A stretch of DNA of 64,000 nucleotides from Syntrophobacterales bacterium (lineage in GTDB: Bacteria > Desulfobacterota > Desulfobaccia > Desulfobaccales > 0-14-0-80-60-11). Within the stretch, counting starts at the first letter, position 1. The number at the start of each line of letters is the position of its first letter. The notes under the pieces were generated by a model. The model was not told the origin of the DNA. It saw nothing but the letters and a program-made list of their open reading frames with translations, and ran no database searches. The translations under genes were made by a program, and so were the position numbers. This document shows, piece after piece, positions 22,101 through 40,229 of the stretch. The stretch is taken from NCBI GenBank assembly GCA_037388025.1, contig JARRKO010000034.1, forward strand, positions 32,336 to 96,335, given 5' to 3'.

Positions 22101-25100
22101 CGCAGCCCTCCATGCCGCGCAAAAGCTGAGGCTTCCCCACGGGGTGGAAGCCTTTGTGCCGCGTAACCTGAAGGAGATTTTTACGGCCGCGCGCACAGGC
22201 GGTCCCCGGGAATTTTCTTTTGACCTGGACCTCAAGGGGGCCATCTACGCGGTCACCCTGCACCTGCCCCATGATTTGCCCACGGCGCGTCTTTACGCCC
22301 TGGACATCACCGATCGCACCCGGGCAGAGGAGGCCCTGCGGGAGAGCGAAGGGCGCGAGCGAGCCCGGGCTGCTGAATTGCAGGCACTTCTGGATACGAC
22401 CCCGGGGATTATCCTCTTGGCCCACGACCCCGAGGGCCGGGTGATCACCGGTAACCGGGCTGCTTATGAACTTATGCGCCGCACGCCCGACAGCAATCTA
22501 TCCAAATCCGCTTCGGCAGGAGAAAGGCCGGAAAACTTCCGGACCATGCAGAACGGCCGGGAGATTACCGGAGCAGAATTGCCGGTGCAGCGGGCCGCCA
22601 CCGGGGAGACGGTGCGAGATTACGATATTGACTTGGTCTTTGATGACGGCACGGTCCACACCATTTTGGGGGACGCCGTACCGTTGCTGGACGAAGCCGG
22701 GCAGCCCCGGGGCGCGGTGGCGGCATTCCTGGATATTACCGAGCGCAAGCGGACCGAAGAGGCCCTGATCCGGAGTCAGGCGGAACTTGAAGCCATCTTC
22801 CACTCCATGTCTGACGGCGTCATCTTTGCCGACCTTCAGCGCCGTATCGTCCTGGTAAACCCTGCGGCCGAAGCCTTGTTCGGATATGCCTTGGAGGAAA
22901 TGCAGGGCCGCACCACGGAGTTTATCTACGCCTCTCCGGCGGATTACGAAGAGCAGGGCCGCCGCCGCTATCACACCAAGCCGGATCATCCCCTCCCTGT
23001 TTATGAAATGGAATACCGGCGCAAGGATGGCAGTGTCTTCTCGGCAGAAACCAAGGGGAGTCAGGTCAAGGATGACCAGGGCCGGGTTATCGGGTTTGTC
23101 AGCATCCACCGGGACATCACCGAGCGCAAGCGGGCAGAAGAGGAACTGGCCCGGCAAAGGGAACTCTTGCAGGCAATCATCGACAACATCCCGGTGATGC
23201 TGACATTTTATGATCCCAACCTGAAGATCTTTCGTTTCAATAAGGAATCGCGTCGGGTGTTGGGCTGGTCGGAAGAAGACTTGGCCGCTATGGATGACCC
23301 CCTGGAGTTTTTTTACCCCAACCCCGAACAACGGGAGCAGGTGCGAGAGTACATGCATTATCTGGTACCGGGGTGGCGGGATTTTCAGGCGACCGCCAGA
23401 GATGGCAGCCTGGTGGACAGTACCTGGGCCAACATCCGCCTCACGGACGATACTCACATCGGCATTGGCGTGGACATCCGGGAGCGGAAACGGGCCGAAG
23501 AAGCCCTGCAGCGGCAAGATAAACTCACCCAAGGCATCAACCTTGTCCTGCATGAGGCCCTGACCTGCGAGACCCAGGAGGATCTGGGCCGCACCTGTCT
23601 GGCCGTGGCCGAAGAGCTCTCCGGCAGCAGGTTCGGTTTTATCGGGCAGATAAACGAGGCCGGTCTCCTGGACGATATCGCTATTAGTGACCCGGGCTGG
23701 GAGGCCTGCACTGTACCGGGGTCGGAAGAAATGGTTTTGCCTAAAGGTTGGCATTTTCACGGTATTTATGGGCAGGTCATAAGAGAAGGGCAGTCCCTGA
23801 TTGCCAACGATCCCGCGGCTCATCCCGACAGCATCGGCCTCCCCGAAGGCCATCCCCCTTTGACGGCTTTCCTGGGCGTGCCCTTGAAACAGGGGGACAA
23901 GACCATCGGCATGGTGGGCCTGGGAAATAAACCTGGGGGCTACACCCCGGCTGATCAGGACGCGGTGGAGACTCTGTCCCTAGCTATGGTGGAAGCGTTA
24001 CAGCGCCAACGGAGCGAGGAGGCCCTGCGCCGGGCTCATGCTGACCTGGAAGAACGGGTGGCGGAGCGTACCGCGGCCCTAAGCCAGGCCAATGAGCAGC
24101 TGCTCGGCGAGATCAAGGAGCGCCAGGAGATGGAGGTCAGGCTCCGGGAAAGTGAGGCCCGCTTCGCGGCCTTCATGGAACACCTGCCGGGATTGGCGGT
24201 GATGCGGGACATGGAGGGGCGTTACCTGTTTGCCAACCAGGCCTGGGAAAAGATGCTGAATCTTGCCCCCGGGGCTTGGGCGGGGAAGACCCCAACACAA
24301 ATCTGGCCCCGCAAGCAGGCCAAAATCTTCCAGAAGCTGGATTTCCAGGTGATTAGCTCCGGGGAGCCCATGGAACAGGTGGAAAAGCTGAAACTGGCCG
24401 ACGGCCGCCATTACCTCCTGACCCACCGGTTTCCCATCAATGACGCCTCGGGCCTTCCCTTCATGGTGGGTACCATAGCCATTGACGTCACGGCGCGCCA
24501 GCAGGCCGAGGAAGACCTGAAGATATCAGAAAAAAGGTTGCGTTACCTTGCAGAACAGTTACTCACCGCCCAAGAGGATGAACGCCGGCGCCTGGCCTCG
24601 GAACTGCACGATGAGCTTGGCCACGCCTTGTTGGCTTTTAGACTCTCTCTGAGTTCCATCGCCAAGGACCTGCTGCCCGAGCAGGAAAGCATCAGGGAGG
24701 AGCTCCTGGAACTGCAGGCGGTTATCAGTGAAGTTTTAGGAGAGATTCGCCGCCTGTATCATGATTTGAGCCCGGGGGACGTAGAGGATTTGGGCCTCAC
24801 CAAGGCCCTGCAATCCCTGGTGGAGAACTTTGCCAGCCATCAGGGACACATAACCTGGCAGGTGGACCTGCCGGAGCTCGACCGGCTCTTCTCCCTGCCG
24901 GTGCAGACCATTATTTACCGCATCGTCCAGGAGGCCTTGACCAATATCGGCAAGCACGCTCAAGCTCAGCAGGTGAGCATTACCGCGGCCAAGAAGGGGG
25001 CAAAGGTGCACTTTGCCATTCAGGACAACGGTCAGGGCTTTGACGTGGCCCGGGTTATAAGGATGCCGGGCCGCGGCGTGGGGCTGGCGGCCATGGAGGA

Positions 25101-25224
25101 GCGGTTGAACATGGTGGGCGGCACTTTCGAAATCCACAGCCGGGAGCAGGAAGGCACCAGGCTCAGGTTCACCATACCCACCTTACCGGAAAGAGAAAAG
25201 CCATGGAGGCGTTTCATCACATGA
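19144..25224 (+). CDS. Giant cytoplasmic hybrid-less sensor histidine kinase: about 12 PAS/PAC modules, one GAF-like module, HisKA_3 and HATPase_c (2026 aa)
   Basis: PAS modules recur, each closed by a D(I/V)(T/S)ER(K/R)xAEE linker. A GAF-like segment lies around 23520-23960 (FLGVPLKQGDKTIGMVGLGNK). The H-box is ELHDELGHALLAF, the N-box QEALTNIGKHA and the G-boxes DNGQGF and GRGVGLAAMEERL. There is no TM segment. Confidence 0.93.
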   Translation: MKSDAKNSSPDFTDLRRQAEERLKKKATHPEELTPVEAARLIHELQVHQIELELQNEELRQAQVQLAESRDKYTDLYDFAPVGYLTLGKAGKILEANLTAATMLGLERSKLLGLFFPHFLVDTDRRVFRQLLNNGSDLRERRGEFHLQDGNGKARVLLLDILLLQDAEGREQHRVALTDITELKTAQEELRLHKEELEELVAERTTELLEVNEELREANDNLRALFEAAPLAIGVFDAEGKVVSVNPASERLFGWSQEEFKGHLPLSMPTKAPEEARAPLERALQGRSFTGTEVKQQRKDGALIAVSLSAAPLHDAAGRFRGFIGLAEDITERKRAEEAVRTQARVLESMAEAVTVTDSRGHIQYSNPAFDAVFGYEPGELLGRHTNILNFYPPEENRRVVQEILRQLQASGVWSGEFLNRRKDGRSFFTSARISALEVGGEKLFISVQEDITERRQREEMLRRQSELLDLAEDAILVWDMVGRVTYWNRGAEDLYGWPREEAMGQVVHRLLATEFPEPLVDIETRLLEQGRWEGESIHTTRDGSRLIAKSRWSLKRDDKGRPLAILEINNDITARRQAEEALRKSEWRFHRLVEANIIGMAVCDEETIVEANDAFLQMLGYTRGEMQPGELNWVELTPHEYLSLDAQALYELRTTGVHTPFEKAFVRQDGSQVAVMVGGALLEEDPFMWVSFVLDVSERKQLEAELRQSEARFRAIFSNASIGIATTDLKGRFQQFNAPVIKGLGYTPTELRGMSFFEVTHPEDLDKDAGLFAELAAGRRERYQVEKRYIRKDGRVLWGRLHVSLARNLAGEPEFAVSLVEDITARQEAQAALAESEARYRSLVEMSPDAIVVHAKGRIIFANQAGLTLFGAASPEDILGQHIFDLVHPDFLDIVKRRVKRGYAGEPADLREIKLRRFDGQFTDVESAARPITYQGQPAVQVVVRDISERKQAEEEIRRLANFPLLNPNPVIEVDEAGTVVYANPAALHAAQKLRLPHGVEAFVPRNLKEIFTAARTGGPREFSFDLDLKGAIYAVTLHLPHDLPTARLYALDITDRTRAEEALRESEGRERARAAELQALLDTTPGIILLAHDPEGRVITGNRAAYELMRRTPDSNLSKSASAGERPENFRTMQNGREITGAELPVQRAATGETVRDYDIDLVFDDGTVHTILGDAVPLLDEAGQPRGAVAAFLDITERKRTEEALIRSQAELEAIFHSMSDGVIFADLQRRIVLVNPAAEALFGYALEEMQGRTTEFIYASPADYEEQGRRRYHTKPDHPLPVYEMEYRRKDGSVFSAETKGSQVKDDQGRVIGFVSIHRDITERKRAEEELARQRELLQAIIDNIPVMLTFYDPNLKIFRFNKESRRVLGWSEEDLAAMDDPLEFFYPNPEQREQVREYMHYLVPGWRDFQATARDGSLVDSTWANIRLTDDTHIGIGVDIRERKRAEEALQRQDKLTQGINLVLHEALTCETQEDLGRTCLAVAEELSGSRFGFIGQINEAGLLDDIAISDPGWEACTVPGSEEMVLPKGWHFHGIYGQVIREGQSLIANDPAAHPDSIGLPEGHPPLTAFLGVPLKQGDKTIGMVGLGNKPGGYTPADQDAVETLSLAMVEALQRQRSEEALRRAHADLEERVAERTAALSQANEQLLGEIKERQEMEVRLRESEARFAAFMEHLPGLAVMRDMEGRYLFANQAWEKMLNLAPGAWAGKTPTQIWPRKQAKIFQKLDFQVISSGEPMEQVEKLKLADGRHYLLTHRFPINDASGLPFMVGTIAIDVTARQQAEEDLKISEKRLRYLAEQLLTAQEDERRRLASELHDELGHALLAFRLSLSSIAKDLLPEQESIREELLELQAVISEVLGEIRRLYHDLSPGDVEDLGLTKALQSLVENFASHQGHITWQVDLPELDRLFSLPVQTIIYRIVQEALTNIGKHAQAQQVSITAAKKGAKVHFAIQDNGQGFDVARVIRMPGRGVGLAAMEERLNMVGGTFEIHSREQEGTRLRFTIPTLPEREKPWRRFIT

Positions 25225-28503: not shown

Positions 28504-28959
28504 AGCCCCCCAATGATCCCCTGGGAAACTAGGACCGGAAGAACGGCTTCGGAGCCGCACAGGATTATCCAAAACTCGGGCTATTTCTGGCCGGAAAGAT
28601 TTCTGCTTGACGGTAGTGATGCTGTCACCTGACCATCGCTTACAGGTGGTTTATGAAGCCGGATATTTGGTTTCCGGCTTCATGACCGACTGCTCAAGAA
28701 GGGCATTGAATGTCTAGTCACCCCTCCAAGGGGCTTGATTCAATGAAGATAACTGTTCCATGCAGCATCTCTGGTTATTGCACTAAGACCGGTTTGACCG
28801 TGGAGCCTTCAAAACGCGCGAGGTCAGGGTGTCCCATGAGATCCTTGAGGACCCAGGTTGCCTCATGCCAAGGCTACTGGAATGGGTCTGGGGCGGGTTT
28901 GGGGCGGGAAAATTAAGTCGTTTGTTTAAGCTAACTAATTGATATTTATAATATTATAA

Positions 28960-29054
28960 TGGTGCCGAAGGCGGGATTTGTTTCTGGCTCTGCAGTTCCC
29001 AACCCTTAACCATTGGGAGCCATTCCAGGCCAATCAGCACCTTTTCATTTCCCC
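28960..29054 (-). repeat. Repeat family T, copy 2 (tRNA 3'-end-like 21-mer plus about 75 nt) at the left edge of the AT-rich island
   Basis: Bases 28960-28980 are identical to 109-129. Bases 28981-29054 align with 155-230. The element is immediately preceded by a very AT-rich stretch (GATATTTATAATATTATAA). Confidence 0.65.
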
Positions 29055-29606
29055 AGTTTTCATACCCCCGCTAAAAGACCTTGACCTTGACCAGGGATAG
29101 CCAACAGATTCTAACAAATATGATGAGTAATTCAACACACTAACCATCAGGTGGTAAGGTGTGGATAGAGAGCAGATAGCAAACGTTTAAGAGATCAAGA
29201 ATTATCATTTTCTTGGGCCGAGAATTCTGCCTTTTTTCTCTTTTTCTCACTTTTTTGTAGAAATCAACATGATTTCCAAAGCTCATGTCCCCAAATTCCC
29301 CATCTTGTAAACAAGACTAGACGGACTGGAGGACCCTTCTCCCTTAGCAAAAGCCTTAAGAATTACTTTGATAAATAATTCACATTAGTTAAAAATTGCT
29401 TGACAACGTCAGGCAAATCATGGCATCAAATAAGAAAAATTCTTATGCTTATCCCCTGTGCGTGTAACTATAGAAGCTAAACCTCCTTCCTATTAGTGCC
29501 ATTAAGTTAACCAAGCCAAAGACTTGGGAATTGTCGTTATTTCTATCGATTTTCTAATTGCTGAGATTTCCTTCCGGATACTGTCAGTTTTATGCTTTCG
29601 TGAATA

Positions 29607-30668
29607 ATGAACGGAGAAACTGATATGGAAGAGGACTCAGTCATCAGGGCGGCCGCAGAAGCAATTGGCGCTGGAAAACCCAACGATTACATTATTTCTC
29701 CAACGAAGCATGCTCAAGAATTTCAAGGCAGAGCACCTGCCTTAGCCGCTATTCTGAATTCAGCCGCAGTAAAGACCGATGCTCTTCGTTACGAAGAAGA
29801 AGATCATAGCGCACTAAACGCACAAAATAAATTTAAAACAATTTTTACCCGTGCAAATATTGCTGTCTTCATAACCGGAGCGTTTATAGCGCTTGTTTTA
29901 GTGATCGGGACACTTGGAAAATTTCTGACAGAAGAGAATCTCAAGATTTTCCTTGCAATTCTTAGTTGTGGAGGCTTCATTGCTGGTGGACTTGCATCGA
30001 GGGATTTGTATTTGATTCGGCAGGGTAGCTTACTAGAAGAGTGGATGTCCAAGCGGGCCTTTGCCGAAACTACAAGACTCGACTATTTTAATAGTTTCGT
30101 AAATTTATCACCGCCAACTTCAGAACTAAGTTCCATTCCATTTGAACTATTAAAACTAGAATATTTTCGGCGCTTCCAACTAGATGTCCAACGTGCTTAT
30201 TATAGAAAAAGAGGGCAACAACACAAGGAAGAGGCATTCAGAACTCAGTCTATAAGCGGATGGGCCATAGGGGGCGCAGCCATCGCCACTGGTGCTGCCG
30301 GAGTGCTTAGTGGTGCCATTAATCCGATGTTTGCAGCCGTCGCAGGCATAGGAACCATTTTCACCAATCTCAGTTCCTTCACTTCCATGAAGGAAGCGGT
30401 AAATCAGGATCGCCGCAATGCAGAGCGTTATGAAAGGACTTTACGAGTGCTGGAGGATCTCTACAAAAAGCTTGATGATGTCAGAAAAGCAGTGTATTCA
30501 GCCGGTATCCAGCCCCTCCTAGATTTTGTTGAGGCAGTGCATGAACAGCTTTCTTTGGAACATAGACAATGGCTTAGTGAAATGGTTGAGGGCAAAGGTG
30601 CCTTCGCCAAGCTCGAAAATACCTTGAAAACTACCTTGAAAGAAGTTCAAAACCAAAAAGACAACTAA
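29607..30668 (+). CDS. SLATT-like 4-TM membrane protein (two 2-TM units), first gene of the island
   Basis: The TM pair IAVFITGAFIALVLVIG / IFLAILSCGGFIAGGLA is followed by WMSKRAFAETTRLDYF. A second TM pair, WAIGGAAIATGAAGVLSG / FAAVAGIGTIFTNL, is followed by RRNAERYERTLRVLEDL. A coiled-coil tail follows. An alternative ATG at 29625 has a GGAG Shine-Dalgarno. Confidence 0.75.
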   Translation: MNGETDMEEDSVIRAAAEAIGAGKPNDYIISPTKHAQEFQGRAPALAAILNSAAVKTDALRYEEEDHSALNAQNKFKTIFTRANIAVFITGAFIALVLVIGTLGKFLTEENLKIFLAILSCGGFIAGGLASRDLYLIRQGSLLEEWMSKRAFAETTRLDYFNSFVNLSPPTSELSSIPFELLKLEYFRRFQLDVQRAYYRKRGQQHKEEAFRTQSISGWAIGGAAIATGAAGVLSGAINPMFAAVAGIGTIFTNLSSFTSMKEAVNQDRRNAERYERTLRVLEDLYKKLDDVRKAVYSAGIQPLLDFVEAVHEQLSLEHRQWLSEMVEGKGAFAKLENTLKTTLKEVQNQKDN

Positions 30669-30852
30669 AAATCACCCCACTTATTTTGAGATGCAATGGG
30701 TCCTATCCAAAAGAAAACATATCTAATGCAATCACTAAATGAAGCTTTTTAAAATAAATGTTCCCAACCGATATCAAATCTATTATGAAATTGATTGAAA
30801 ATTTGGGCTATTATTAATCACTAAAAGATTCAATGTCATGGAGGAAATTTCC

Positions 30853-32352
30853 ATGCCAATGAGCCGCTTAGACAGACCCTTAAAAGTTTTTGTGTCCTCG
30901 ACCTCGGAGGACCTTACAGATTATCGTGCCGTTGCGCGACTTGCCATTTGCGATATGAAATGGGCTCCAGACATGATGGAACACTGGACCACCAGACCAG
31001 AATCGACGCGCGAGGCTTGTTTCGATGAGCTTAGTAAATGTGACCTGATGATCCTGATGGTTGCTTTTCGGCGCGGTTGGGTGCCCACAAAAGATCAGGG
31101 GGGCGATGGGCAGAGTTCCATCACCGCTCTGGAATATAAATACGCTCAGGAAAACAACAAGCCAGTGCTGGTGTTTCTGGCAAAAGATAACTGGCCTGGA
31201 AATCTGTGGGAAAGAGACCCATCCGCCATGGAGTGGATTGAGAATTTTCGTAATGAATTGAACCAAATTGCCAAATTTTTTGAATACGAGAAACCCGCAG
31301 GGGATGAAAAGGAAAGTTTTCCAGTTTTCCGTGCCGAAATACGCAGGGCCCTTTCTGATTATCTCCTCCGCCTTATCCAAGATTCCGGTGAGCTCGAGGA
31401 GCCTGAACCTACCTTACAGCCTGAAGATTTTGATCAATTTGAGGGGGCATGCCAGGCGCTTCAGATGGGGGGATGCATCCCCTTTTTGGGACCTGGAATT
31501 TACGGTGAGGAAGGACCTCTTTCTTCGTGCTCTATAATAGAAGCCCTGGCTGATAAGAAATGTCTTGAAAGGACCCTGGCCACCGCTGCTGAGTACCGAG
31601 AACGCCGTCTTAAGTTCCGGGATTCGTTCTTAATTCGGTTGGAAAAGATTATCAATGAACAGGGCATGCAAACCAAGGAGCCAGTAGTTTTTGAACTTTT
31701 GTTAAAATCTAAACCAGCGCTTATCGTTAGCGCCACCGAAGATCTTTTGTTGGAACAAAGGTTGGAGAAAGCAAATCATCCTCTTTTGATCTTTTGCCAT
31801 GTTATTCGGTCATTAAACGGTAAGCATGACGGAAAAATTATTATGTTTCGTGGTCCTAATGATCCCAACCCTAAATTTCATGATGCAGATAGTATTGCTC
31901 TGAGTTCCACTAAAGACACTTTTATCATTTACAAGCCTTTGGGATCGCCGTTGTTGAACCGTTTAATTAATGACGATCTGAAGGATGATGCGATCGATAC
32001 GGTAGTTATGACTGAAACCGATCACCTGATTCTATTAAGTCGACTGGAAAATCAAAGCACTAGAGTTCCCAATGCTTTTAGCCGTTATTTCCAGAGGTTA
32101 CCCCTGATCTTCCTTGGCTATCCCATGGATGTCTGGCATTACCGTCTTGTTGGTCAAGTTTTCAGGAACAGCGGTGAAACCAGTATGAAACCCATGAGGC
32201 TAGCTGTGCGGCGAACATTTTCTCTCATGGAAAAATTATCTTGGCGAAATCTCGAAGTGGAACTGCTACCCATGGATCCCGATGAGTTAGCCAGAAAAAT
32301 TCTCGATGAACTCAATGAACTTGCGGGGAAAAAAGTGCAGGAGACACCATGA
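30853..32352 (+). CDS. DUF4062 (TIR-like) N-terminal domain fused to a SIR2_2-like C-terminal domain
   Basis: The N-terminus KVFVSSTSEDLTDYRAVARLAI...CDLMILMVAFRRG...SITALEYKYAQENNKPVLVFL follows the DUF4062 pattern. The C-terminus CIPFLGPGIYGEEGPL...LIVSATEDLLLEQ...LPLIFLGYPMDVWHY follows the SIR2_2-like pattern. The ORF opens at 30838, and the ATG at 30853 has GGAGG 8 nt upstream. The stop overlaps the next start (ATGA). Confidence 0.75.
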   Translation: MPMSRLDRPLKVFVSSTSEDLTDYRAVARLAICDMKWAPDMMEHWTTRPESTREACFDELSKCDLMILMVAFRRGWVPTKDQGGDGQSSITALEYKYAQENNKPVLVFLAKDNWPGNLWERDPSAMEWIENFRNELNQIAKFFEYEKPAGDEKESFPVFRAEIRRALSDYLLRLIQDSGELEEPEPTLQPEDFDQFEGACQALQMGGCIPFLGPGIYGEEGPLSSCSIIEALADKKCLERTLATAAEYRERRLKFRDSFLIRLEKIINEQGMQTKEPVVFELLLKSKPALIVSATEDLLLEQRLEKANHPLLIFCHVIRSLNGKHDGKIIMFRGPNDPNPKFHDADSIALSSTKDTFIIYKPLGSPLLNRLINDDLKDDAIDTVVMTETDHLILLSRLENQSTRVPNAFSRYFQRLPLIFLGYPMDVWHYRLVGQVFRNSGETSMKPMRLAVRRTFSLMEKLSWRNLEVELLPMDPDELARKILDELNELAGKKVQETP

Positions 32353-35300
32353 ACACCCAAGATAACCTTAATTCTGCGGTACCCCTGCCGGATACTCCTT
32401 TTGTGGGCGCAAGGCCCTTTGAGCAAAAAGAGCAAGCCATTTTCTTTGGCCGGGATCGGGATGCTGTTCTCCTTCGGGACAAAATATTCTCTTCCAAGCT
32501 CACTGTTTTCTATGGTCTATCGGGTGTCGGCAAATCATCAATCCTGCGAACCCTCCTGGTTCCTTACTTGGAAGATCAGGAAGCCTTTGTCATCACTTTC
32601 GATGGCTGGAGCAGCAACGACCCCGTCATGGCCATCAAGACCGAGCTAATCAAAGAGGCTATCAGGCTAAGGATTCCGGATCCAGGCGCAGGCGCTCCGA
32701 CACTTGCTGACCTTATTCGTCTCCTGATCAGCGTTGATGGGCGGACCGTGGTGCTCATCCTGGACCAGTTCGAGGAGTTCTTTACCCATGGCCACCGCCC
32801 AGCTCTCTTGCGCCGGGAACTTGGGTCTTTGGTGCGCAGCCCCAACCTTGATGTCAGGATTCTCCTGTCCTTACGGGAGGAGCACCTCGCCTCCCTCGAG
32901 CCTTTCAGGTCTGAGATCGTAAACCTGTTTCAATCTACTTATCGACTCGAGCTCATGAACTCCGAAGGTGGTCGGGAAGCTATTGAGGGACCTCTAAAGG
33001 TGTTCAAGGTGGAATATGAACCAAAACTAGTAGATACTTTAATTAACGATCTGCGGCTGGAACAGCATTCGACCAAGACCGATCGTCCGACTGCCACCGA
33101 CGACGCACCTATAGACCTGCCGATGCTGCAACTGGTCTGTGACGAGCTGTGGAAGGAAGCAACGAAGGAAAAAGCGAAAAAGCCGGGGTCAATAAAATTT
33201 ACCCTGGATTTATATAAAAGTCTGGGAGAACGACAAGGCATCCTGGAGATCTATCTCCAGCGTGTCATGCCGCACCACTGGCGCCAGAAGTATCTTACTG
33301 CCCGGCTCATGGAGCATCTCGCCCCGCCGGAAGGGTACAAAGTTGCCCTTTCTGCAGACTACTTGGCTCACCGTATCAAGACCCCCCGGTCCAAGGTAAA
33401 TTATGAACTCGAACGTCTCAGCGATGACGAAGTGCGTGTTCTACAAAGCCGAACATATGAAGGCGACGTTGTCCGCTACGAGCTCAGACATGACAGGTAT
33501 ATTCCCATCATCGCGAACTGGCGCGACCAGGTCTTAAGGAACATTAGACGCTGGCGCAATGCGATCAGTACAGCTGTCATCCTGATCTTAATGGTTTTCG
33601 GCGTCTTATTGGTGGACGGATATATTCTTCACAGGAACACAGTGGGGGTCATGACCAGGGAAGACCTATCCTCTCAAGGTGGGGACAGAGAAGAGCTTAT
33701 GGCGAGAAAGTTTGATCAAGTCGCCAATTATCTCATCTGGACCAGAACTTGGTATAATCCCTATCATTTAGTGTGGGAAAATCGCTTCGATTACTTGAAG
33801 AAAATCCTTATTAAATACGGACCTAAGTTGCCTAAGAATTATGGCATCGAGCGTTCAGGGGTGGAGTTCATTACCTTGCCCTCTGAACAGGAGGATTGGC
33901 CTCTGACGGTGAGCTACTCGAGCTCCCGGGGGTTAAATCCCTTTATCTTTACCCAAATGTGGCAATCCATTGCTACAACCCTGTTAAATAAAAAATGGGG
34001 TATCCCGGTCCCCTTGAAGCTTCGACTGATTAAAGAGGATATTCCCAAGGAGCAGATCAAATTAACCAGGCCCCATATCAAAGAACCGAAATATTTTAAT
34101 AACATTCCGGCTTACGAGGATAAAGCATTCATTAGATGCAACCCCAAAAATCTTCTGGGTACGGCTCAAATTTTTTTCGAGAGATTCAGAGGCGAGTGGA
34201 TAAAAATCGATCCAAAAGAGACTAAAGAGGAGAAGAATGAGGAAGAATCCGGAGAATCAATCTGGGTAATCCCCCGCTGGTCCCTGCCGGCCTGGAAAGC
34301 TTCAGGCGAAACCATTTATGACGGCAGCGCTCTGCCGGCCTATATTCTGGTATACAGGCTGGTTTCCCATCTTGAATTATTGCTGACTCCCGACGCCATG
34401 GAGATTCTCCTAGAAAAAGTCGCCAAAATGTATCCTGAGACAGTGGCTGAGGCCCGTGCTGTCCGTGGGGACCAACTCTTGGAGGATATCCAGGAAATTA
34501 ATTACCGAATGATTTTAGAGGACAGGGACTTGCTCAACCAGTTACCTACTATCCTGGACGCCCTGGCAAACTACCCGGAAAAATCATCGAAGGAAATTGC
34601 TAATGAGGTCTCTTCAGACATTGATTCTTTCCGGGTTTCTTTGCAGTCAGGACTCAGAGGCCCCCACAAGACCAAACCTCGGCCTCCTGAAGTTAAATTT
34701 CCTGAAGCCTATCGAGAGGCCGGCAACTGGCTCCCGAATTTTAAATCCAAAGTTCGAGTCTATCATGGAGTAGACCTGCTCCCTAAGTGGTTCACGAATC
34801 AAGGAGATTTTAAGCCTGAAGTCCTTACGCAACTTAAAAAAATCCAGGACAGAGTCTTTAAACAGTTCGGAGTTCCTATGCCAGCCGGGAAACTTATAAT
34901 GCTTCCTAACCTCACCGGCAACACCCTGCGCGTGGAGCTCATGAATCAGACAACCCAACATTCCCATGCTGACGTATTCCAGGTTGACCAGGAGGATGCC
35001 CTGAAGCAGCTCGCCGCGGCTTTGACCTTCCGGCTGGATTCCTACCGGATTCATTTCTTGAACGCTGAGCAGGTCCGCAAGATTCTGGATGACCTCAATC
35101 CGGCTGTGAGGTCGTGGTTACAAACCCGTTATTCTCTCACCGATCTGAAACTGCTTCTGCGAACGGTAATAAACCCCTCTGCAGAAGAGCTCAAGTATCG
35201 GAAGAAAATGTTCGCTAAGGGAGTCCTGGATCAGACTCGTGGGATTCCAGACGGCAGCACCATCCGTCAGCCGGGCTGGCTCCTGGCCTCCCTCGTCTTC

Positions 35301-37481
35301 TGGTCTCAGGTTGACGATTACCTTTATCTCCGGGATATGGCCGCAGACCTGCGCAAGACCCAACACGCCAGGCTCAATGCCAAGACAGTGTCCCCCACAG
35401 GGGAGGTCGCCAAACTTATAATCAAGGGCGTCAGGTGTCTGGATCAGGGGCACATTGATGAGGCGGAGAAGGCCTTCTCCGAAGCCATACAATCTGACCG
35501 GAAATCTGCAGTCTCCAGTTTCCTGGCCTTTTATCCCCAGGAGCTTCAGCAGCAACTCATCCAAGCCCATAAAGAATTGTTTGCCGGCCTTCTGGCCCCC
35601 TCCCAAGAGCTAAAGCAATTGAGAAAATTATTATTTCGTGACCTCAAGTTGGCAGAGTTGAAGGCCAATTTAAACGACTCCTTGATCGACCTGGTTTTCG
35701 ACAAGAACGAGGATATGCGAGCTCGCCGCCGCATTATGATGTTATTTCTTGACGTTTCTGAGTTTACCCGAGACCAATGGCTCAAACTGGTTGACTATTC
35801 TCTGGCTAAATTCGGTTCGCCGCTCAAGTGGCCCGCCAACGAAACCGCGTTTTTTGGTACACTGCTCTTAATGAGACAGGACCAGCTTCTCGATCTGCCG
35901 GGTTCCACCGGGCCCAAATTTACTAAATATGGTTTGGTTTTATTGAAGATTGCCCAGCGACGACTTGACAATCAAGATACCTTTCAGCAGACAAGCAAGG
36001 TTCTAAAGATTTTTAAAAGACCAGGAAACCTGGAGTTAAGCCGCCCAGAAAGAATCGAGCTGGAGGATTTGGTGGACCAAAAGGGCCTTGATGATAAAAC
36101 AGCCCGGTGCCTCCGCCTGTGTTTGTTAGCCGCCTATCCGGAGAGCTATCGCCAGGATAAACGCACCCTTACCGATAAGATCGTCAAGCTGCATGGCACC
36201 CCGGACCGGTGGCCGGCGGAGGAGGCCGCCTGGTTCGGCCTCAGGCTCTTGTCAGAGTTCGACCCCCTGACTGATGACCAGAAAATCCCGGAAAAAGGCA
36301 TGGATTTTCTGACCCGAGCCATGCCCCAACTCCGCGGGGCAGAAGCTAAAAATCTGTCGACTAAAATTTTGACAATTTGTGGAACGCGCGGTCCCAACCA
36401 GTGGTGTTGGAACCTCGTGCCTGGTCTGGCGAAAAGCCGCAAGGACCCATTTTTATACTTTAATATTGGCTTGTTCCTGGCCGAGCGCGAGGTTCCGGCC
36501 GATCTGGAGTATGCCTGCACCCTGGCAGAGCGGGCCAAAAAAGGATTTAGCAATTTAAACCTTCCTCCGAAAAAAAGAGATGCTTTAATAGATTACGCTG
36601 ATTTCCTGTGGGCCAGAGCTACCTTGGGACTGGCCATCTTAGGTGCTGAGTTGGACCGCGAAAAGGTGGAAAAGGTGGAATACATCTTTGCCCGCCTCTT
36701 GAAATCAGAGAATCTGGGGAGCTCAGCACATGAGCAAATGGCCAGGCTGAGATTGTGGGAAAAACGCCCCCAGGAAGCCGCTGAAATCATCGACCTGGCG
36801 ATCCAGAAATGGCCCAACGAGCAAGAACCTTACGGTTTGAAACTGAAAATGCTGCTTGAGGCTGGTGATGACGAGGGCGCGGCCAAAGTTGCCCACAAGG
36901 CAGGGACCTTGGTCGAGAGGGTCGACGGAAAAATTACCTACGAATCTAGCGGCTTTGCCTTCGTCTGGGCCCTGGGGCTGCTTATGACCCATACCGACCC
37001 CTGGGAACGGTCCGCCCGTGATTTTCTGCAAACCGATCATCCTTACGTGCCTTATATAGCCATGCTGCTGTATGCGCATTTGACCGGCAAGGATAAGGAA
37101 GAGGCCCTGAAGGTGATCCAACAGCACTGGGCCCGGGTCCGGCCGGAGACCTGGGAGGAGCGACTGCGACAAAGAGATCAAACCGTCTGGCGGGAGATGC
37201 TTATCGGTTACTACCTCAATAAGGTCCCAGCTGAGAGGATTCTCGGTCCTCTGGAGGACGACAGAAAGTTTGACAAATCAGAGCTCAGCAAGGTTCCCAT
37301 GCCTCGAAAGGGTATGCTCTGTGAAGCTTACTTTTATGATGCTTTGCTTGCCAAAGCCCAGGGGAAGAGAAGTCGAATGAAAGCCAGTTTACAAAAAGCT
37401 GCGGACTCAAATTACCAGAGTTACTTCGAGTATGGCATGGCCAAGTATCTGCTGGCTCAACTGAATCAGAAGCAACCCTAA
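32349..37481 (+). CDS. 1710-aa STAND-type P-loop NTPase with one TM helix, two FlhA/FHIPEP-C-like modules and a C-terminal TPR-like region
   Basis: AGGAG Shine-Dalgarno. The lead-in is PFVGARPFEQKEQAIFFGRDRD. Walker A GLSGVGKSS lies at 32514-32540 and Walker B is VVLILDQFEEFF. The TM helix AISTAVILILMVFGVLLVDGYIL (about 33561-33630) follows RNIRRWRN. The C-terminus is TPR-like (RLRLWEKRPQEAAEIIDLAIQKWPNEQEPYGLKLKMLLEAGDDEGA). Confidence 0.85.
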   Translation: MNTQDNLNSAVPLPDTPFVGARPFEQKEQAIFFGRDRDAVLLRDKIFSSKLTVFYGLSGVGKSSILRTLLVPYLEDQEAFVITFDGWSSNDPVMAIKTELIKEAIRLRIPDPGAGAPTLADLIRLLISVDGRTVVLILDQFEEFFTHGHRPALLRRELGSLVRSPNLDVRILLSLREEHLASLEPFRSEIVNLFQSTYRLELMNSEGGREAIEGPLKVFKVEYEPKLVDTLINDLRLEQHSTKTDRPTATDDAPIDLPMLQLVCDELWKEATKEKAKKPGSIKFTLDLYKSLGERQGILEIYLQRVMPHHWRQKYLTARLMEHLAPPEGYKVALSADYLAHRIKTPRSKVNYELERLSDDEVRVLQSRTYEGDVVRYELRHDRYIPIIANWRDQVLRNIRRWRNAISTAVILILMVFGVLLVDGYILHRNTVGVMTREDLSSQGGDREELMARKFDQVANYLIWTRTWYNPYHLVWENRFDYLKKILIKYGPKLPKNYGIERSGVEFITLPSEQEDWPLTVSYSSSRGLNPFIFTQMWQSIATTLLNKKWGIPVPLKLRLIKEDIPKEQIKLTRPHIKEPKYFNNIPAYEDKAFIRCNPKNLLGTAQIFFERFRGEWIKIDPKETKEEKNEEESGESIWVIPRWSLPAWKASGETIYDGSALPAYILVYRLVSHLELLLTPDAMEILLEKVAKMYPETVAEARAVRGDQLLEDIQEINYRMILEDRDLLNQLPTILDALANYPEKSSKEIANEVSSDIDSFRVSLQSGLRGPHKTKPRPPEVKFPEAYREAGNWLPNFKSKVRVYHGVDLLPKWFTNQGDFKPEVLTQLKKIQDRVFKQFGVPMPAGKLIMLPNLTGNTLRVELMNQTTQHSHADVFQVDQEDALKQLAAALTFRLDSYRIHFLNAEQVRKILDDLNPAVRSWLQTRYSLTDLKLLLRTVINPSAEELKYRKKMFAKGVLDQTRGIPDGSTIRQPGWLLASLVFWSQVDDYLYLRDMAADLRKTQHARLNAKTVSPTGEVAKLIIKGVRCLDQGHIDEAEKAFSEAIQSDRKSAVSSFLAFYPQELQQQLIQAHKELFAGLLAPSQELKQLRKLLFRDLKLAELKANLNDSLIDLVFDKNEDMRARRRIMMLFLDVSEFTRDQWLKLVDYSLAKFGSPLKWPANETAFFGTLLLMRQDQLLDLPGSTGPKFTKYGLVLLKIAQRRLDNQDTFQQTSKVLKIFKRPGNLELSRPERIELEDLVDQKGLDDKTARCLRLCLLAAYPESYRQDKRTLTDKIVKLHGTPDRWPAEEAAWFGLRLLSEFDPLTDDQKIPEKGMDFLTRAMPQLRGAEAKNLSTKILTICGTRGPNQWCWNLVPGLAKSRKDPFLYFNIGLFLAEREVPADLEYACTLAERAKKGFSNLNLPPKKRDALIDYADFLWARATLGLAILGAELDREKVEKVEYIFARLLKSENLGSSAHEQMARLRLWEKRPQEAAEIIDLAIQKWPNEQEPYGLKLKMLLEAGDDEGAAKVAHKAGTLVERVDGKITYESSGFAFVWALGLLMTHTDPWERSARDFLQTDHPYVPYIAMLLYAHLTGKDKEEALKVIQQHWARVRPETWEERLRQRDQTVWREMLIGYYLNKVPAERILGPLEDDRKFDKSELSKVPMPRKGMLCEAYFYDALLAKAQGKRSRMKASLQKAADSNYQSYFEYGMAKYLLAQLNQKQP

Positions 37482-37704
37482 AATGGCTTGATCTTTTATT
37501 TCTAATTCCTTATTATACCGCATTATTTGGGTTAACAACCGAATGAATGTTGCACATCGACCAACTTCCAAAACCTTTCAGAATAATTCAAAATCATTTG
37601 GTCCCTTACATGGTTGTTGCTCTCCACTCGGAGACGTATATTCTTGGACCTCAGTGAATTTCGCCACTGAAAAACCGGCAGGCCAAAATGGAATTCGGAG
37701 AAGA

Positions 37705-37908
37705 TATCTTGCCAAACCCGACAGTTATCATCGGACCTCGAAAAATTGCAGTTATGGTTTGATTATCAAAACAGGGGGGTGGTGCCCCAAATATTGGCTA
37801 TCCGGACCTTTTCAGGCTGGTGCCCTTAATGATAAGCTCCATGTGTTGATATTTTCTGTTTATGGGAAGTTTTTGGCTGCGTGATAAGTTTCTAAGAAGA
37901 GCAGTTAT
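37705..37908 (+). repeat. Repeat family R, copy R2 (204 bp)
   Basis: Starts TATCTTGCCAAACCCGACAGTTATCATCGGAC and ends GGGAAGTTTTTGGCTGCGTGATAAGTTTCTAAGAAGAGCAGTTAT. The central part diverges from the other copies. Confidence 0.8.
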
Positions 37909-37990
37909 CGCGTACCCGGAATTTCTTCCGTGGCAAACAAAAGAGGCAGGGCCAGTTGACCCTGCCTCTTTTGTTTTTCAGGTCAAAAGC

Positions 37991-40229
37991 TTATCCGCTT
38001 CGTTTTCTCCGCCAGCCCAGGAGTCCCAGGCCCAAAAGTCCCGAGCCCAGGAGGAACACGGAAGGGGGCACCGGGGTGGGGTCAGGTTTGAGCTGGCCCA
38101 GGCCCCCCGCAAAGTCGTAGGTCTTGCCCAAAAGGTAAGCGTTGATCAGCAAGTCAGGATCGTAATAGATATTTATCTCCTCATCGTCGTCATTGAAGAT
38201 GTTATACACCATCTTGGTGAACCAGTTCACCTTGGCGCCGATCAAGCCCCCCACATACTGAGCCGTGCCCTCGTTACTGTCGTTGCCATCAAAGAGGTGC
38301 ACGGTTTGTCCGAGGATAATCAGGGTGCCCCATTCAAAGCCGTTGGTGCCCGAGGGGCCTTTGTCCTCCCCGGGGATATAAAAGTTGTGACTCTTGTCAG
38401 CCCCCGTGACGAATTTCAGGGTAGCCGCGGCGGTGTCCCAGGCGGAGGCATTAATGCTCATATTGTTGAAATCATTTTTGATTTTGAACACATCCTGGGA
38501 GTGCCCCACCAGGTATCCTGTTTGGATAACGGGGTCCGGGACTGTTAGGTCGGTGAAGGTCTGGGTGGCATGATCGCTGATATAGGCGCCCTTGTTGGTG
38601 AAGGTGCCGTTCCAGGTGACGATGGCCTTGGTGGTGTTGACGGTGCCGTTTGACGGTGCCGTAATTCTCCACGTCGCCGGTCACCGTGGTGATGGTGTTC
38701 ATGACGTTGAAGGTGTCATTGGCGTCTATATCGATGGTTTTGGCGGACAGGATGCCGCCATTGAGGTTGTAAGTGCCAGTCCCGCCGAGCGGCGAGAGGG
38801 TCAGGGAGTTGGTGACTATATTGGCGCCGCCATTCTGGTTAAAGACGCCGGTGCCCACTGGCCCGATCATCTCGTCGTTAGCCTTGAGGGTCCCGCGGTG
38901 GAGATTGTAGGTGCCGCTGCTGCCAAATTGAGCCGCCAGGGTGAGGATACCGGCCACCGTGTGGGTGCCGCCGGTTTGGTTGAAGACGCCGGTGCCGTTA
39001 TAGCCGATAAACTCGTCCCCACTAACCGAGAGGCTGCCGTCCTTTGACAAGTTATAGGTGCCGCTGCCGGTGGCCTCATTGCCCAGGGTGAGGTCAAGGC
39101 CTACCGTATGGGTGCCGCCGCTCTGATTGAAGGTGCCGCTGCCGGAGTTGCCGATATATTCATTACCGGCCACCGAAAGACTGCCGCCCTTCAGGTTGTA
39201 GGTGCCGCTGCCGGTGGGTCTATAAAAATAGCCCAGGAAAAGATTTTTGGTGCTAACCGTATGAGTGCCGCCGCTCTGGTTGAAGATGCCGCTGCCGAAG
39301 CTGCCGATATATTCATTAAAGTCAGTAACCACTAAATTGCCGGACACTAGATTGTAGGTGCCGAGGGCATCTCGAACACTTCCAAGTTCGAGACCTTTTA
39401 CGGTGTTGCTCCCTCCGGTCTGGTTGAAGGTACCGGTGCCGATACTTTCGCCCTCAGCCTGGAGGGAGCCGCCTTTCAGATTATAGGTACCGATGCCGCC
39501 AAAATCATATCCCACGTAGAGAAGACCTGAGGCCGTATGGGTACCGCCGAATTGGTTGAAGGTGCCGGTGCCGGAGTAGCCGATATATTCATTACCGGCC
39601 AGCGGACCGGCCACCGAAAGGCTGCCGCCACTCAGGTTATAGGTGCTGTTAATACCACCAAGAAAAAGGAATTGGGTTATCGTATTGGTGCCGCCGCTCT
39701 GATTGAAGGTGCCGGCGCCCTGGCTACCTATAATTTCATTGGAGGCCAAGAGGCTGCCGCTGCCGCTGAGATTGTAGGTGCCTTTACCGGTGGGGTTATA
39801 ACCGAGGATAAGTTGGCTACTTCTAGGGTTGGTATTTACCGTATTGCTGCCGCCGCTCTGGTCGTAGACCCCCTTGCCGTCCAGGCCGATAGTCTCATTA
39901 TCGGCGGTCAGGGCGTTGCCGGACTGTTGCAAGGTGATGTTGCCCCAGCCGGTGGCATCAACGGTAAGGGCGGACAACATCGGATTGGATGAGGTATTGT
40001 AAATGACAGTCTTAGGGAAGAAACCACTCTGGGTGACGAAGACGTCATCTCCGGCCCCCGGCTCCCCTGACGGGCTCCAGTTGCTGGCCGTAGTCCACAG
40101 ATTATTGAAGGGGGTGCCGACCCACTGTTTGGTGACGGCCAGGGCCGGCTGGGCCATAAGGACCAGTAGCAAGGCGGCGGTGGCAATGAGAGTCCATAAG
40201 CATCTGGTCTTGGTGCTATCCGGTTGCAT
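37991..40229 (-). pseudogene. Repeat-rich secreted PEP-CTERM protein, split by a 13-bp tandem duplication (frameshift)
   Basis: Signal peptide MQPDSTKTRCLWTLIATAALLLVLMAQPALA, with the ATG at 40229 and an AAGGAG Shine-Dalgarno. There are about eight G(T/S)G(T/V)FNQxGG(T/S)(N/H)T(V/I)...GTYNLxGGSL repeats. The C-terminal sorting signal is PVPPSVFLLGSGLLGLGLLGWRRKRSG. The reading frame switches at 38637-38662 between ORFs 38472-40286 and 37991-38509. Confidence 0.85.
38637..38662 (-). repeat. Perfect 13-bp tandem duplication (TTGACGGTGCCGT x2 on the + strand) causing the frameshift
   Basis: Bases 38637-38649 equal 38650-38662. Removing one unit joins ...TVTGDVENYGTV to NTTKAIVTWNGTFTNKGAYISDH... 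in one frame. Confidence 0.9.

Follow-up and report, generated by a model that had tools for sequence, protein, structure and literature searches.

Two FlhA/SctV-C-like modules behind a single predicted membrane helix in a STAND NTPase with a SIR2-family partner gene

Introduction

What are two modules resembling the cytoplasmic part of a type III export gate doing in a STAND NTPase, and on which side of the membrane do they lie? The question is raised by a gene in a stretch of 64,000 nucleotides (nt) of a Syntrophobacterales bacterium (contig JARRKO010000034.1 of GenBank assembly GCA_037388025.1, positions 32,336 to 96,335 of the forward strand; this whole stretch is called the window, and positions are given in its coordinates). 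The encoded protein is identical to the NCBI record MEJ2092335.1, labelled "hypothetical protein" and derived from a Syntrophobacterales metagenome-assembled genome (MAG). A first reading of the letters and of the translated open reading frames (ORFs), here the sequence-only reading, had proposed an N-terminal STAND NTPase joined through one membrane helix to two tandem modules like the cytoplasmic domain of FlhA/InvA (FHIPEP) proteins, with the puzzle that all that follows the helix would then be extracytoplasmic.

The STAND protein contains two diverged homologs of the C-terminal domain of the FHIPEP family. With a probability that we put at about 0.6, the gene is the sensor/switch subunit of a conserved two-gene conflict system of the NLR-like type (nucleotide-binding leucine-rich repeat receptor), probably anti-phage, which combines a predicted extracytoplasmic sensor with NAD depletion.

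Domain layout of the STAND protein

The order along the chain is nSTAND1 NTPase, one transmembrane helix, two FlhA/SctV-C-like modules and a tetratricopeptide repeat (TPR)-like solenoid of ~700 amino acids (aa), with the following features:

32349..37481, + strand: the whole STAND gene, 1710 aa (ORF list and translation)
32397..33497, + strand: nSTAND1 NTPase module, aa 17-383 (Pfam PF20703, E 2.9e-35)
33561..33629, + strand: single transmembrane helix, aa 405-427, sequence AISTAVILILMVFGVLLVDGYIL (Kyte-Doolittle mean 2.64)
33630..33893, + strand: membrane-adjacent helical region, aa 428-515 (AlphaFold2 helices at model residues 5-62)
33894..34628, + strand: FlhA-C-like module 1, aa ~516-760 (FHIPEP match, family profile, hhalign, AlphaFold2 with Foldseek)
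34704..35219, + strand: FlhA-C-like module 2, aa ~786-957 (hhalign, stand-alone AlphaFold2 model, Foldseek, FHIPEP matches in relatives)
35220..35384, + strand: conserved helical connector, aa 958-1012, which holds the WLLxSLVFW motif
35385..37478, + strand: TPR-like alpha-solenoid, aa ~1013-1710 (weak Pfam TPR matches, family profile)

The STAND NTPase at the N-terminus (aa 17-383 at E 2.9e-35) agrees with the sequence-only reading, and by its PF20703 score (123.1 bits vs. a gathering cut-off of 27.1) the protein is a member of the nSTAND1 clade. In the translation, the Walker A motif reads GLSGVGKSS (with K62) and the Walker B motif VVLILDQFEE (with D139); the G, K, S, D, Q, and E of these motifs are near-invariant in the family alignment. 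The peptides cited in the sequence-only reading are all located where it placed them in the ORF 32349..37481. The span 33561-35190 that it gave for the helix with its modules starts correctly at the helix, but its end falls within module 2, since the modules extend over ~33894-34628 and 34704-35219. The homology and the domain architecture of the protein can be considered secure.

Two modules related to the C-terminal domain of FlhA and SctV

For module 1, three independent single-sequence searches rank FlhA first or nearly so. Pfam FHIPEP (PF00771) aligns aa 626-750 with profile positions 420-541 of 657 (E 1.1e-4), at 21.3 bits and under the gathering cut-off of 29.1. The NCBIfam FlhA model covers aa 650-747 (E 0.0067, 14.7 bits vs. 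a cut-off of 772), and the top PDB sequence match of the single protein is the FlhA-C of Helicobacter (3myd, E 0.073). With a family profile built from 54 sequences and searched against all PDB sequences, FlhA-C is reached at E 1.5e-11 (3myd), 1.5e-8 (3mix), and 8.6e-7 (3a5i), followed by the injectisome gates MxiA (4.4e-5), InvA (2e-4), and YscV (1.8e-3). The remaining PDB matches of the profile are TPR/PPR repeat proteins, which correspond to the C-terminal solenoid, or P-loop proteins.

Profile-profile alignments place the two modules on different parts of FlhA. We used E. coli FlhA as reference; it has 692 residues like Salmonella FlhA, so that the Salmonella numbering is applied directly (linker 328-361, C-domain 362-692). 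The subdomain boundaries for the D1-D4 mapping are those which we take to be given in the crystal-structure papers of FlhA-C. In module 1, aa ~653-748 align with FlhA 478-570, from the end of D2 through the second half of D1 to D3 (hhalign E 2.8e-5). When aligned globally, module 1 covers FlhA 362-575, with WPLxxxYS opposite the GYXLI region and the WGIPVP strand opposite MGFLPPVVHIRDN. In module 2, aa ~804-876 align with FlhA 365-434, the first half of D1 (hhalign E 6.4e-5), and a weaker colinear match joins RYSLTDLKLLL with D3 of FlhA (VPIRDMRTIL). The near-invariant Gly of the IRVYxG motif of module 2 stands opposite Gly-368 of GYXLI, a conserved switch motif of FlhA (bioRxiv 10.1101/2022.03.25.485897).

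There is no FHIPEP match of Pfam on module 2 in the window protein alone. In the relatives P0146, P0148, and P0006, on the other hand, the Pfam FHIPEP match falls on module 2 instead of module 1 (sub-threshold at E 5e-5 to 5e-4, profile positions 319-399). Between the two modules, BLASTP detects no similarity, and the profile-profile comparison gives two weak colinear matches (E 0.004 and 0.006). In this comparison, an insert of ~95 residues in module 1 sits at the D2 position. Module 1 thus has an alpha/beta part like D1, the insert where D2 would be, and a helical part like D3, and module 2 has D1-like and D3-like parts without the D2 insert: module 1 is D1-D2-D3-like and module 2 D1-D3-like. 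No clear counterpart of the D4 subdomain was identified in either module. The starts of characteristic segments are WGIPVPLKLRL at nt 33996 (aa 550) in module 1, and FGVPMPAGKL at nt 34866 (aa 840) and SLTDLKLLLRTVI at nt 35133 in module 2. The best-conserved motif of the whole family, VPRWSLPxWK, occurs in module 1. The helical region between the membrane helix and module 1 (aa 428-515) has neither a Pfam match nor a known relative.

The predicted structures point to the same fold. An AlphaFold2 model of the mid-region (aa 428-1020, with model residue 1 being aa 428), made from the 54-sequence alignment, has a mean pLDDT of 91.4 and a pTM of 0.90. Against the PDB, Foldseek returns for it SctV/FlhA cytoplasmic domains exclusively among the 50 matches listed (EscV, CdsV, SsaV, YscV, FlhA, MxiA, InvA), with E-values to 1.4e-6, probability 1.00, and TM-scores by target of 0.40-0.45. 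Module 2 modeled alone (aa 780-1020; pLDDT 91.7, pTM 0.86) again finds SctV/FlhA-C in all 50 matches listed, with E-values down to 2e-6 and TM-scores of 0.32-0.43 by target and up to 0.58 by query. Sequence identity to FlhA/SctV-C in the Foldseek matches listed is 11-16%. As a negative control, the mid-region model was compared with a viral structure library, where nothing significant was found (best E 0.58), so that the matches in the PDB do not reflect a generic property of this model.

The sequence-only reading had drawn the two tandem modules from the order of conserved blocks, and both now have their alignment to FlhA (478-570 at E 2.8e-5 for module 1, 365-434 at E 6.4e-5 for module 2). 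The profile comparison that it had suggested reaches the cytoplasmic domain of FHIPEP proteins (E 1.5e-11 with the family profile), and AlphaFold modeling followed by Foldseek, which it had also suggested, leads only to SctV/FlhA-C among the matches listed, both for the mid-region and for module 2 alone.

The membrane helix and the side of the membrane

The helix is the sole strongly hydrophobic segment in the 1710 aa, with a Kyte-Doolittle mean over 19 residues of 2.64 vs. 1.53 for the runner-up. It follows an Arg-rich stretch, NWRDQVLRNIRRWRN, that includes RNIRRWRN directly before AISTAVILILMVFGVLLVDGYIL. A segment with a hydropathy of at least 1.6, ~20 residues past the NTPase, is present in 91 of 96 full-length relatives, and the remaining five have at the equivalent place a weaker uncharged segment of ~19 residues. 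Hydrophobicity, position, and the Arg-rich N-terminal flank (PWRDxxLRRxRRxRR) are conserved, and the sequence of the segment itself is variable. The single transmembrane helix of the sequence-only reading is thus kept in position through the family (91/96 at the strict threshold).

In the 15 residues flanking the helix, the mean number of Lys and Arg is 5.8 on the N-terminal side and 2.9 on the C-terminal side, and the N-terminal flank is the richer one in 81/91 proteins. Because of the positive-inside rule at the helix, the NTPase is predicted to be cytoplasmic and the C-terminal ~1280 residues to lie outside the cytoplasm. A segment of 19-25 residues is too short for a hairpin, and its two ends must therefore be on opposite sides if it spans the membrane. 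Agreeing with a cytoplasmic N-terminus, the NTPase requires ATP and the partner enzyme (see below) uses NAD+. Likewise, in the relative P0126 (1968 aa), a Ser/Thr kinase domain is fused N-terminally to nSTAND1. The order kinase, NTPase, membrane helix, and sensor in P0126 recalls the receptor kinases of the PknB type. The topology puzzle raised at the outset holds family-wide, with the N-terminal flank richer in Lys and Arg in 81 of the 91 proteins: a fold otherwise known to us only on the cytoplasmic side of export gates is here predicted, from the charges around the helix, to be periplasmic. Among the family matches, no stand-alone secreted version of the C-terminal region was found, and the short matches are fragments at contig ends.

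The connector and the TPR-like solenoid

Behind module 2, the connector is predicted by AlphaFold2 to form helices at model residues 548-582, where W550, L551, S554, L555, F557, and W558 are near-invariant. Over the solenoid that follows, the family profile finds TPR proteins of the PDB, both designed and natural, down to E 1.3e-12. The solenoid is presumed to be the ligand-binding sensor.

Two pairs of Cys occur in the solenoid (columns 2236/2299 and 2419/2437 of alignment A1, window ~35500-36500). The members of each pair tend to be present together: both are found in 49/59 and 38/43 of the proteins having either (Fisher p 1.5e-9 and 3e-16, uncorrected for phylogeny). Disulfides are one possibility for these pairs and would imply a location in the periplasm; a four-Cys metal/Zn site formed by both pairs is the other.

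Within the STAND gene, ARAGORN reports a tRNA-Pro (anticodon CGG) at 36204-36280 (+). The tRNA model of Rfam is silent there even at E<=1, and the candidate is almost certainly a false positive.

The SIR2-family partner gene

Directly upstream of the STAND gene lies a second gene, whose stop overlaps the start of the STAND gene by 4 nt:

30838..32352, + strand: partner (effector) gene, 504 aa, with DUF4062 at aa 16-103 and a degenerate SIR2_2-like region at aa ~200-500

In Pfam, DUF4062 is matched above its cut-off (E 2.1e-17) and SIR2_2 weakly (E 0.0036); at the level of the family, jackhmmer retrieves SIR2 at E 1.7e-27. Loci with at least 900 nt upstream of the STAND gene were taken as informative for the partner, and there are 34 of these. 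In 32/34, the end of a SIR2-like ORF lies only a few bases from the STAND start, with -4 or -14 nt as the typical overlap. The other two are artefacts of ORF calling in high-GC contigs, in which tblastn recovers the SIR2-like gene. The SIR2-family partner is obligate, being directly upstream in 34/34 informative loci.

The partner occurs in three forms: a stand-alone SIR2_2 of ~308 aa (E ~1e-25), SIR2_2 with a C-terminal TIR_2, and DUF4062 with SIR2_2, as in the clade of the window. The alignment shows that the stand-alone form (for example in locus L021) keeps FLGAGAS, TTNYD, and HLHG. In both fused forms, the Asn of TTNYD and the His of HG are replaced, and the partner in the window reads SATED and KPLGS. 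On the other hand, the Glu of DUF4062 (E99, in a "TALE" motif) is invariant in the partner alignment. DUF4062 has been shown to act as a TIR-like NADase in phage defense, with Glu-97 as catalytic residue in a Klebsiella protein (bioRxiv 10.64898/2026.05.01.722283). Over the window and loci including L018, L019, and L021, the catalytic residues of SIR2 are lost wherever a TIR or DUF4062 domain is fused, which suggests that the enzymatic role of SIR2 has been displaced and the fold kept as an adaptor. These alignments suggest that the SIR2-like fold serves as a conserved adaptor to the NTPase, and we infer that the NADase activity would sit in whichever domain of the partner retains its catalytic residues.

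Distribution of the family

An exhaustive search for homologs of the mid-region among 1.84 billion cluster representatives gives 195 representatives (at 50% identity) with the mid-region, 101 of them with E <1e-30; an initial search by shared words had recovered three proteins only. Most relatives have 1500-1700 aa, with the mid-region match from residue ~400-570 onward, and nearly all of the full-length ones share the same layout. The spread is patchy, over Desulfobacterota, Acidobacteriota, Proteobacteria, Verrucomicrobiota, and Zixibacteria. In public records, family members are named "hypothetical protein", "ATP-binding protein", or "Novel STAND NTPase 1".

With a 12-sequence alignment as query, 59 related loci were gathered from genomes and metagenomes; with a single module as query, no loci were found. 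Those with names come from MAGs of Malonomonas, Acidiferrales, Rubrivivax, Alpha- and Gammaproteobacteria, and Verrucomicrobiia. As to habitat, the system occurs in uncultured soil and sediment bacteria only. The plasmid and phage collections searched by tblastn contain no match. In a second Syntrophobacterales MAG, the proteins P0001, P0002, P0153, and P0154 (NCBI MEJ20716xx, on a contig of 4780 bp) are 100% identical to the window protein over the matched parts. The splitting of the gene over several ORFs in that MAG probably reflects assembly frameshifts and not a pseudogene.

Genomic neighborhood

Upstream of the two-gene operon, at a distance of 170 nt, lies a further gene:

29607..30668, + strand: SLATT-domain membrane protein, 353 aa

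The SLATT assignment comes from NCBIfam SLATT_1 (45.3 bits vs. a cut-off of 41) and Pfam SLATT_1 (E 2e-4). A SLATT homolog was sought by tblastn in the 59 related loci and found in none; the gene is outside the conserved core. SLATT proteins are predicted to be pore-forming effectors that respond to nucleotides. The one here may be a local accessory to the system, responding to products of the NADase, or it may be an unrelated neighbor.

At 28-32 kb, the G+C content is 0.44-0.47, lower than in the 10 kb before it (0.50-0.62) and than at 38-40 kb (0.56). Ahead of the SLATT gene, 1.1 kb (28504-29606) contain no ORF of at least 80 aa. The low G+C and the non-coding stretch are consistent with a horizontally acquired island. 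Neither an integrase nor a genuine tRNA was found at the low-G+C border. In a scan for promoters and terminators, the counts were not above those in shuffled sequence. We did not observe type III secretion or flagellar genes near the STAND gene, either in the window or in the loci L001, L006, and L007.

In a Malonomonas MAG (locus L001, 13419-16411), directly downstream of the orthologous operon, are genes for an alpha/beta-hydrolase+TPR-S protein and a MAP3K_TRAF_bd/TPR-S protein. These neighbors of conflict type hint at a defense-island setting in the Malonomonas genome.

Elsewhere in the window, a sensor histidine kinase of 2026 aa (19144-25224, +) contains about ten PAS domains, GAF, and HisKA_3/HATPase_c, an unusually long PAS array. 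At 37925-37989, a hairpin-like element gives, on both strands, sub-threshold matches to several miRNA-precursor models unrelated to one another. The element falls within the overlapping small ORFs 37543-37884 and 37862-38548, for which Pfam gives no match and the related loci no counterpart.

A model for the function and its alternatives

A defense role of the STAND and SIR2 system is probable. In the model that we favor, the NTPase and the partner would be in the cytoplasm, and the FlhA-like modules with the solenoid would be outside the inner membrane. A cue located in the envelope (a phage component on its way through the periplasm is the most plausible one) would bind the outer part and cluster the receptor, and the NTPase domains would then oligomerize in the cytoplasm. 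The SIR2-like domain would dock as adaptor to the NTPase and the NADase would be turned on (DUF4062 here, an active SIR2 in other clades). The loss of NAD+ would stop the infected cell, in a form of abortive infection. The FlhA-like modules may provide a ligand-binding cleft as in FlhA, or an oligomerization platform. In FlhA, chaperone-substrate complexes are bound in the dimple between D1 and D2, as is the linker, and the nonameric ring is assembled through D1/D3 contacts (bioRxiv 10.1101/2022.03.25.485897). By analogy, either property, ligand binding or ring contacts, could be reused in the modules.

Several points weigh against this model. The location of the two parts follows from the positive-inside rule and from domain logic only. 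All characterized FlhA-C domains and STAND sensors are, to our knowledge, cytoplasmic. In characterized STAND proteins, the TPR sensor contacts the NTPase and autoinhibits it directly (PMC13581612). A membrane between both would rule out such autoinhibition by fold-back of the sensor; as contact between sensor and NTPase is impossible across a membrane, induced proximity is the simplest alternative way of activation. The TM-scores of both structural models to FlhA/SctV-C are moderate. The neighbors in the window are two-component/sensor kinase, transport, and metabolic genes, with no obvious defense island. The family is known from sequences alone, all of them from metagenomes or MAGs of uncultured bacteria. 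PADLOC-DB v2.0.0 (2023) has no STAND model for the protein, and the search against it gave at most a weak match to mad8 (E 1.2e-4).

The main rival of the extracytoplasmic sensor is an all-cytoplasmic STAND and NADase system, in which the helix serves only as a tether or is buried in the oligomer, and in which the modules and the TPR region detect a cytoplasmic phage protein in the manner of Avs. The C-domains of FlhA/SctV are indeed cytoplasmic and bind cytoplasmic chaperone-substrate complexes, the STAND sensors characterized so far recognize phage proteins in the cytoplasm and keep the NTPase inhibited through contact (PMC13581612), and the four co-occurring Cys of the solenoid could form a Zn site and not disulfides. 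We nevertheless hold this arrangement to be unlikely: one uncharged segment of 19-25 residues cannot bring the chain back, so that the ATP-needing NTPase and the C-terminal part are on opposite sides if the segment spans the membrane, and the segment has the signature of a true membrane anchor (position and hydrophobicity conserved, sequence not, Arg-rich N-terminal flank). Less likely still is that the periplasmic part belongs to a housekeeping NTPase of envelope signaling, which would couple a periplasmic state (secretion, cell-wall assembly) to NAD-dependent regulation via the sirtuin-like partner, outside any conflict. The sensor kinases, transporters, and metabolic enzymes that flank the genes in the window would suit such a role, as would the lack of matches in the plasmid and phage collections searched by tblastn. 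The partner, however, is SIR2_2/ThsA-like, fused to TIR, or fused to DUF4062, all of them hallmarks of suicide NADase effectors; the spread over phyla is patchy, the G+C drops at 28-32 kb, and the Malonomonas locus adjoins TPR-S and MAP3K_TRAF_bd genes of conflict type. We consider the housekeeping role improbable.

The two modules might also be integrated decoys that mimic the ring of the export gate and trap a phage or competitor protein aimed at FlhA/SctV, thereby triggering the NTPase as in plant NLRs. STAND proteins often acquire target-like sensor domains, and both modules retain the D1/D3 scaffold which forms the ligand cleft in FlhA. Against decoys speak the identity to FlhA of 11-16%, the position opposite Thr-490 of the chaperone-binding dimple of FlhA, which is variable in the family, the predicted membrane side, opposite to that of FlhA-C, and the conservation of the modules across phyla, which does not follow the FlhA of any host; the chances of this explanation appear slim. 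Finally, the likeness to FlhA could be convergent or an artefact of prediction, the true fold being an unrelated alpha/beta and helical one. The Pfam score (21.3 bits) is under the gathering score of 29.1, modules 1 and 2 show no BLASTP similarity to each other, and the training set of AlphaFold (the PDB) includes FlhA. On the other hand, the profile, which uses sequences only, reaches E 1.5e-11 with FlhA, MxiA, InvA, and YscV as the sole families that are neither TPR nor NTPase; the two modules match different parts of FlhA colinearly; and Pfam FHIPEP finds module 2 independently in relatives. A chance resemblance is essentially excluded, and the decoy and non-defense explanations are less likely than the all-cytoplasmic one.

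Comparison with known systems

With FlhA/SctV (InvA, MxiA, YscV, EscV, CdsV), the STAND protein shares the D1 and D3 scaffold, the order of the conserved blocks, and, in module 1, an insert at the position of D2. As in FlhA, the C-domain comes after a membrane helix and a linker. Unlike FlhA/SctV, it has no transmembrane domain of eight helices, no FHIPEP loop, and no clear D4; the module is in tandem and fused to an NTPase and a TPR region, flagellar or injectisome genes are absent nearby, and the predicted side of the membrane is the opposite one. Because of the sub-threshold Pfam score and the lack of a polytopic domain, of the FHIPEP loop, and of secretion-system neighbors, the STAND protein is not a member of the FHIPEP family. 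We know of no reported homolog of the FlhA/SctV ring domain outside type III export machines, including in the literature searched, and the characterized prokaryotic STAND/NLR-like sensors known to us are soluble and detect cytoplasmic phage proteins.

Among defense systems, Avs5 (EfAvs5, PMC11897194) and other SIR2-coupled STAND proteins share with the system a STAND NTPase, a C-terminal repeat sensor, and a SIR2-family NADase effector, and the logic to be expected is that oligomerization induced by a ligand leads to NAD+ depletion. Avs5 is a soluble protein with SIR2 fused at its N-terminus; here, SIR2 is encoded by a separate, translationally coupled gene, the NTPase is of the nSTAND1 clade, and a membrane helix with two FlhA-like modules stands between NTPase and sensor. 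DUF4062 is shared with Swarozyc, the E99 of the partner being positioned similarly to the catalytic E97 of KpSwz (bioRxiv 10.64898/2026.05.01.722283). Swarozyc is, however, a single protein activated directly by a phage portal, whereas here DUF4062 is fused to a degenerate SIR2 and paired with a membrane STAND protein. The stand-alone SIR2 of the sister clade is most similar to ThsA of Thoeris (PADLOC E 3e-21), with GAG, TTNYD, and HG kept; unlike ThsA, it has no SLOG/Macro sensor and no signal generator of the ThsB type, and a STAND partner instead. The partner in the window has no match in PADLOC-DB v2.0.0.

An NTPase of the same clade is found in the nSTAND1 conflict systems reported by the Aravind group (PMC8195603). 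A precedent for sensors outside the cytoplasm is offered by the NACHT-CLec STAND proteins diversified by diversity-generating retroelements, with predicted periplasmic C-type-lectin sensors (bioRxiv 10.1101/2023.09.22.558884). The proteins of these two reports use effector-associated adaptor domains and FGE/CLec sensors, and none is reported with FlhA-like modules or an obligate SIR2. No paper tying FlhA/FHIPEP to STAND proteins or to phage defense was found in the literature searched, and neither FlhA nor sensors split off by a membrane come up in the main text of a 2026 survey of STAND proteins (Nature). Absent from PADLOC-DB v2.0.0 and confined to uncultured bacteria, the system would for these reasons not be flagged by standard annotation that relies on catalogues of this kind.

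Significance

The system belongs to the known sort that pairs STAND with an NADase and has a sensor architecture without precedent, which makes it a variant, not described before, of probable NLR-like defense. More tentatively, with odds that we place somewhat below even, the modules may be the first relatives of FlhA/SctV-C outside type III secretion, on the periplasmic side of a single-pass receptor of the NLR type. Such a receptor would follow the logic of Toll-like receptors, with the sensor outside, one helix, the NTPase inside, and a TIR-like/SIR2 NADase, and the tandem D1-D3 might mimic two adjacent protomers of the FlhA ring and in this way drive clustering across the membrane upon ligand binding.

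The widespread occurrence of a duplicated copy of FlhA-C in an unrelated protein gives a handle on the origin of the domain and on which of its surfaces are generic. The partner genes constitute an apparent natural experiment, in which fusion to a TIR or TIR-like domain goes with loss of the SIR2 catalytic residues. A sensor split from its NTPase by a membrane helix would imply trans-membrane signaling through a switch of the NLR type, and makes the sensing of phages at the level of the envelope testable.

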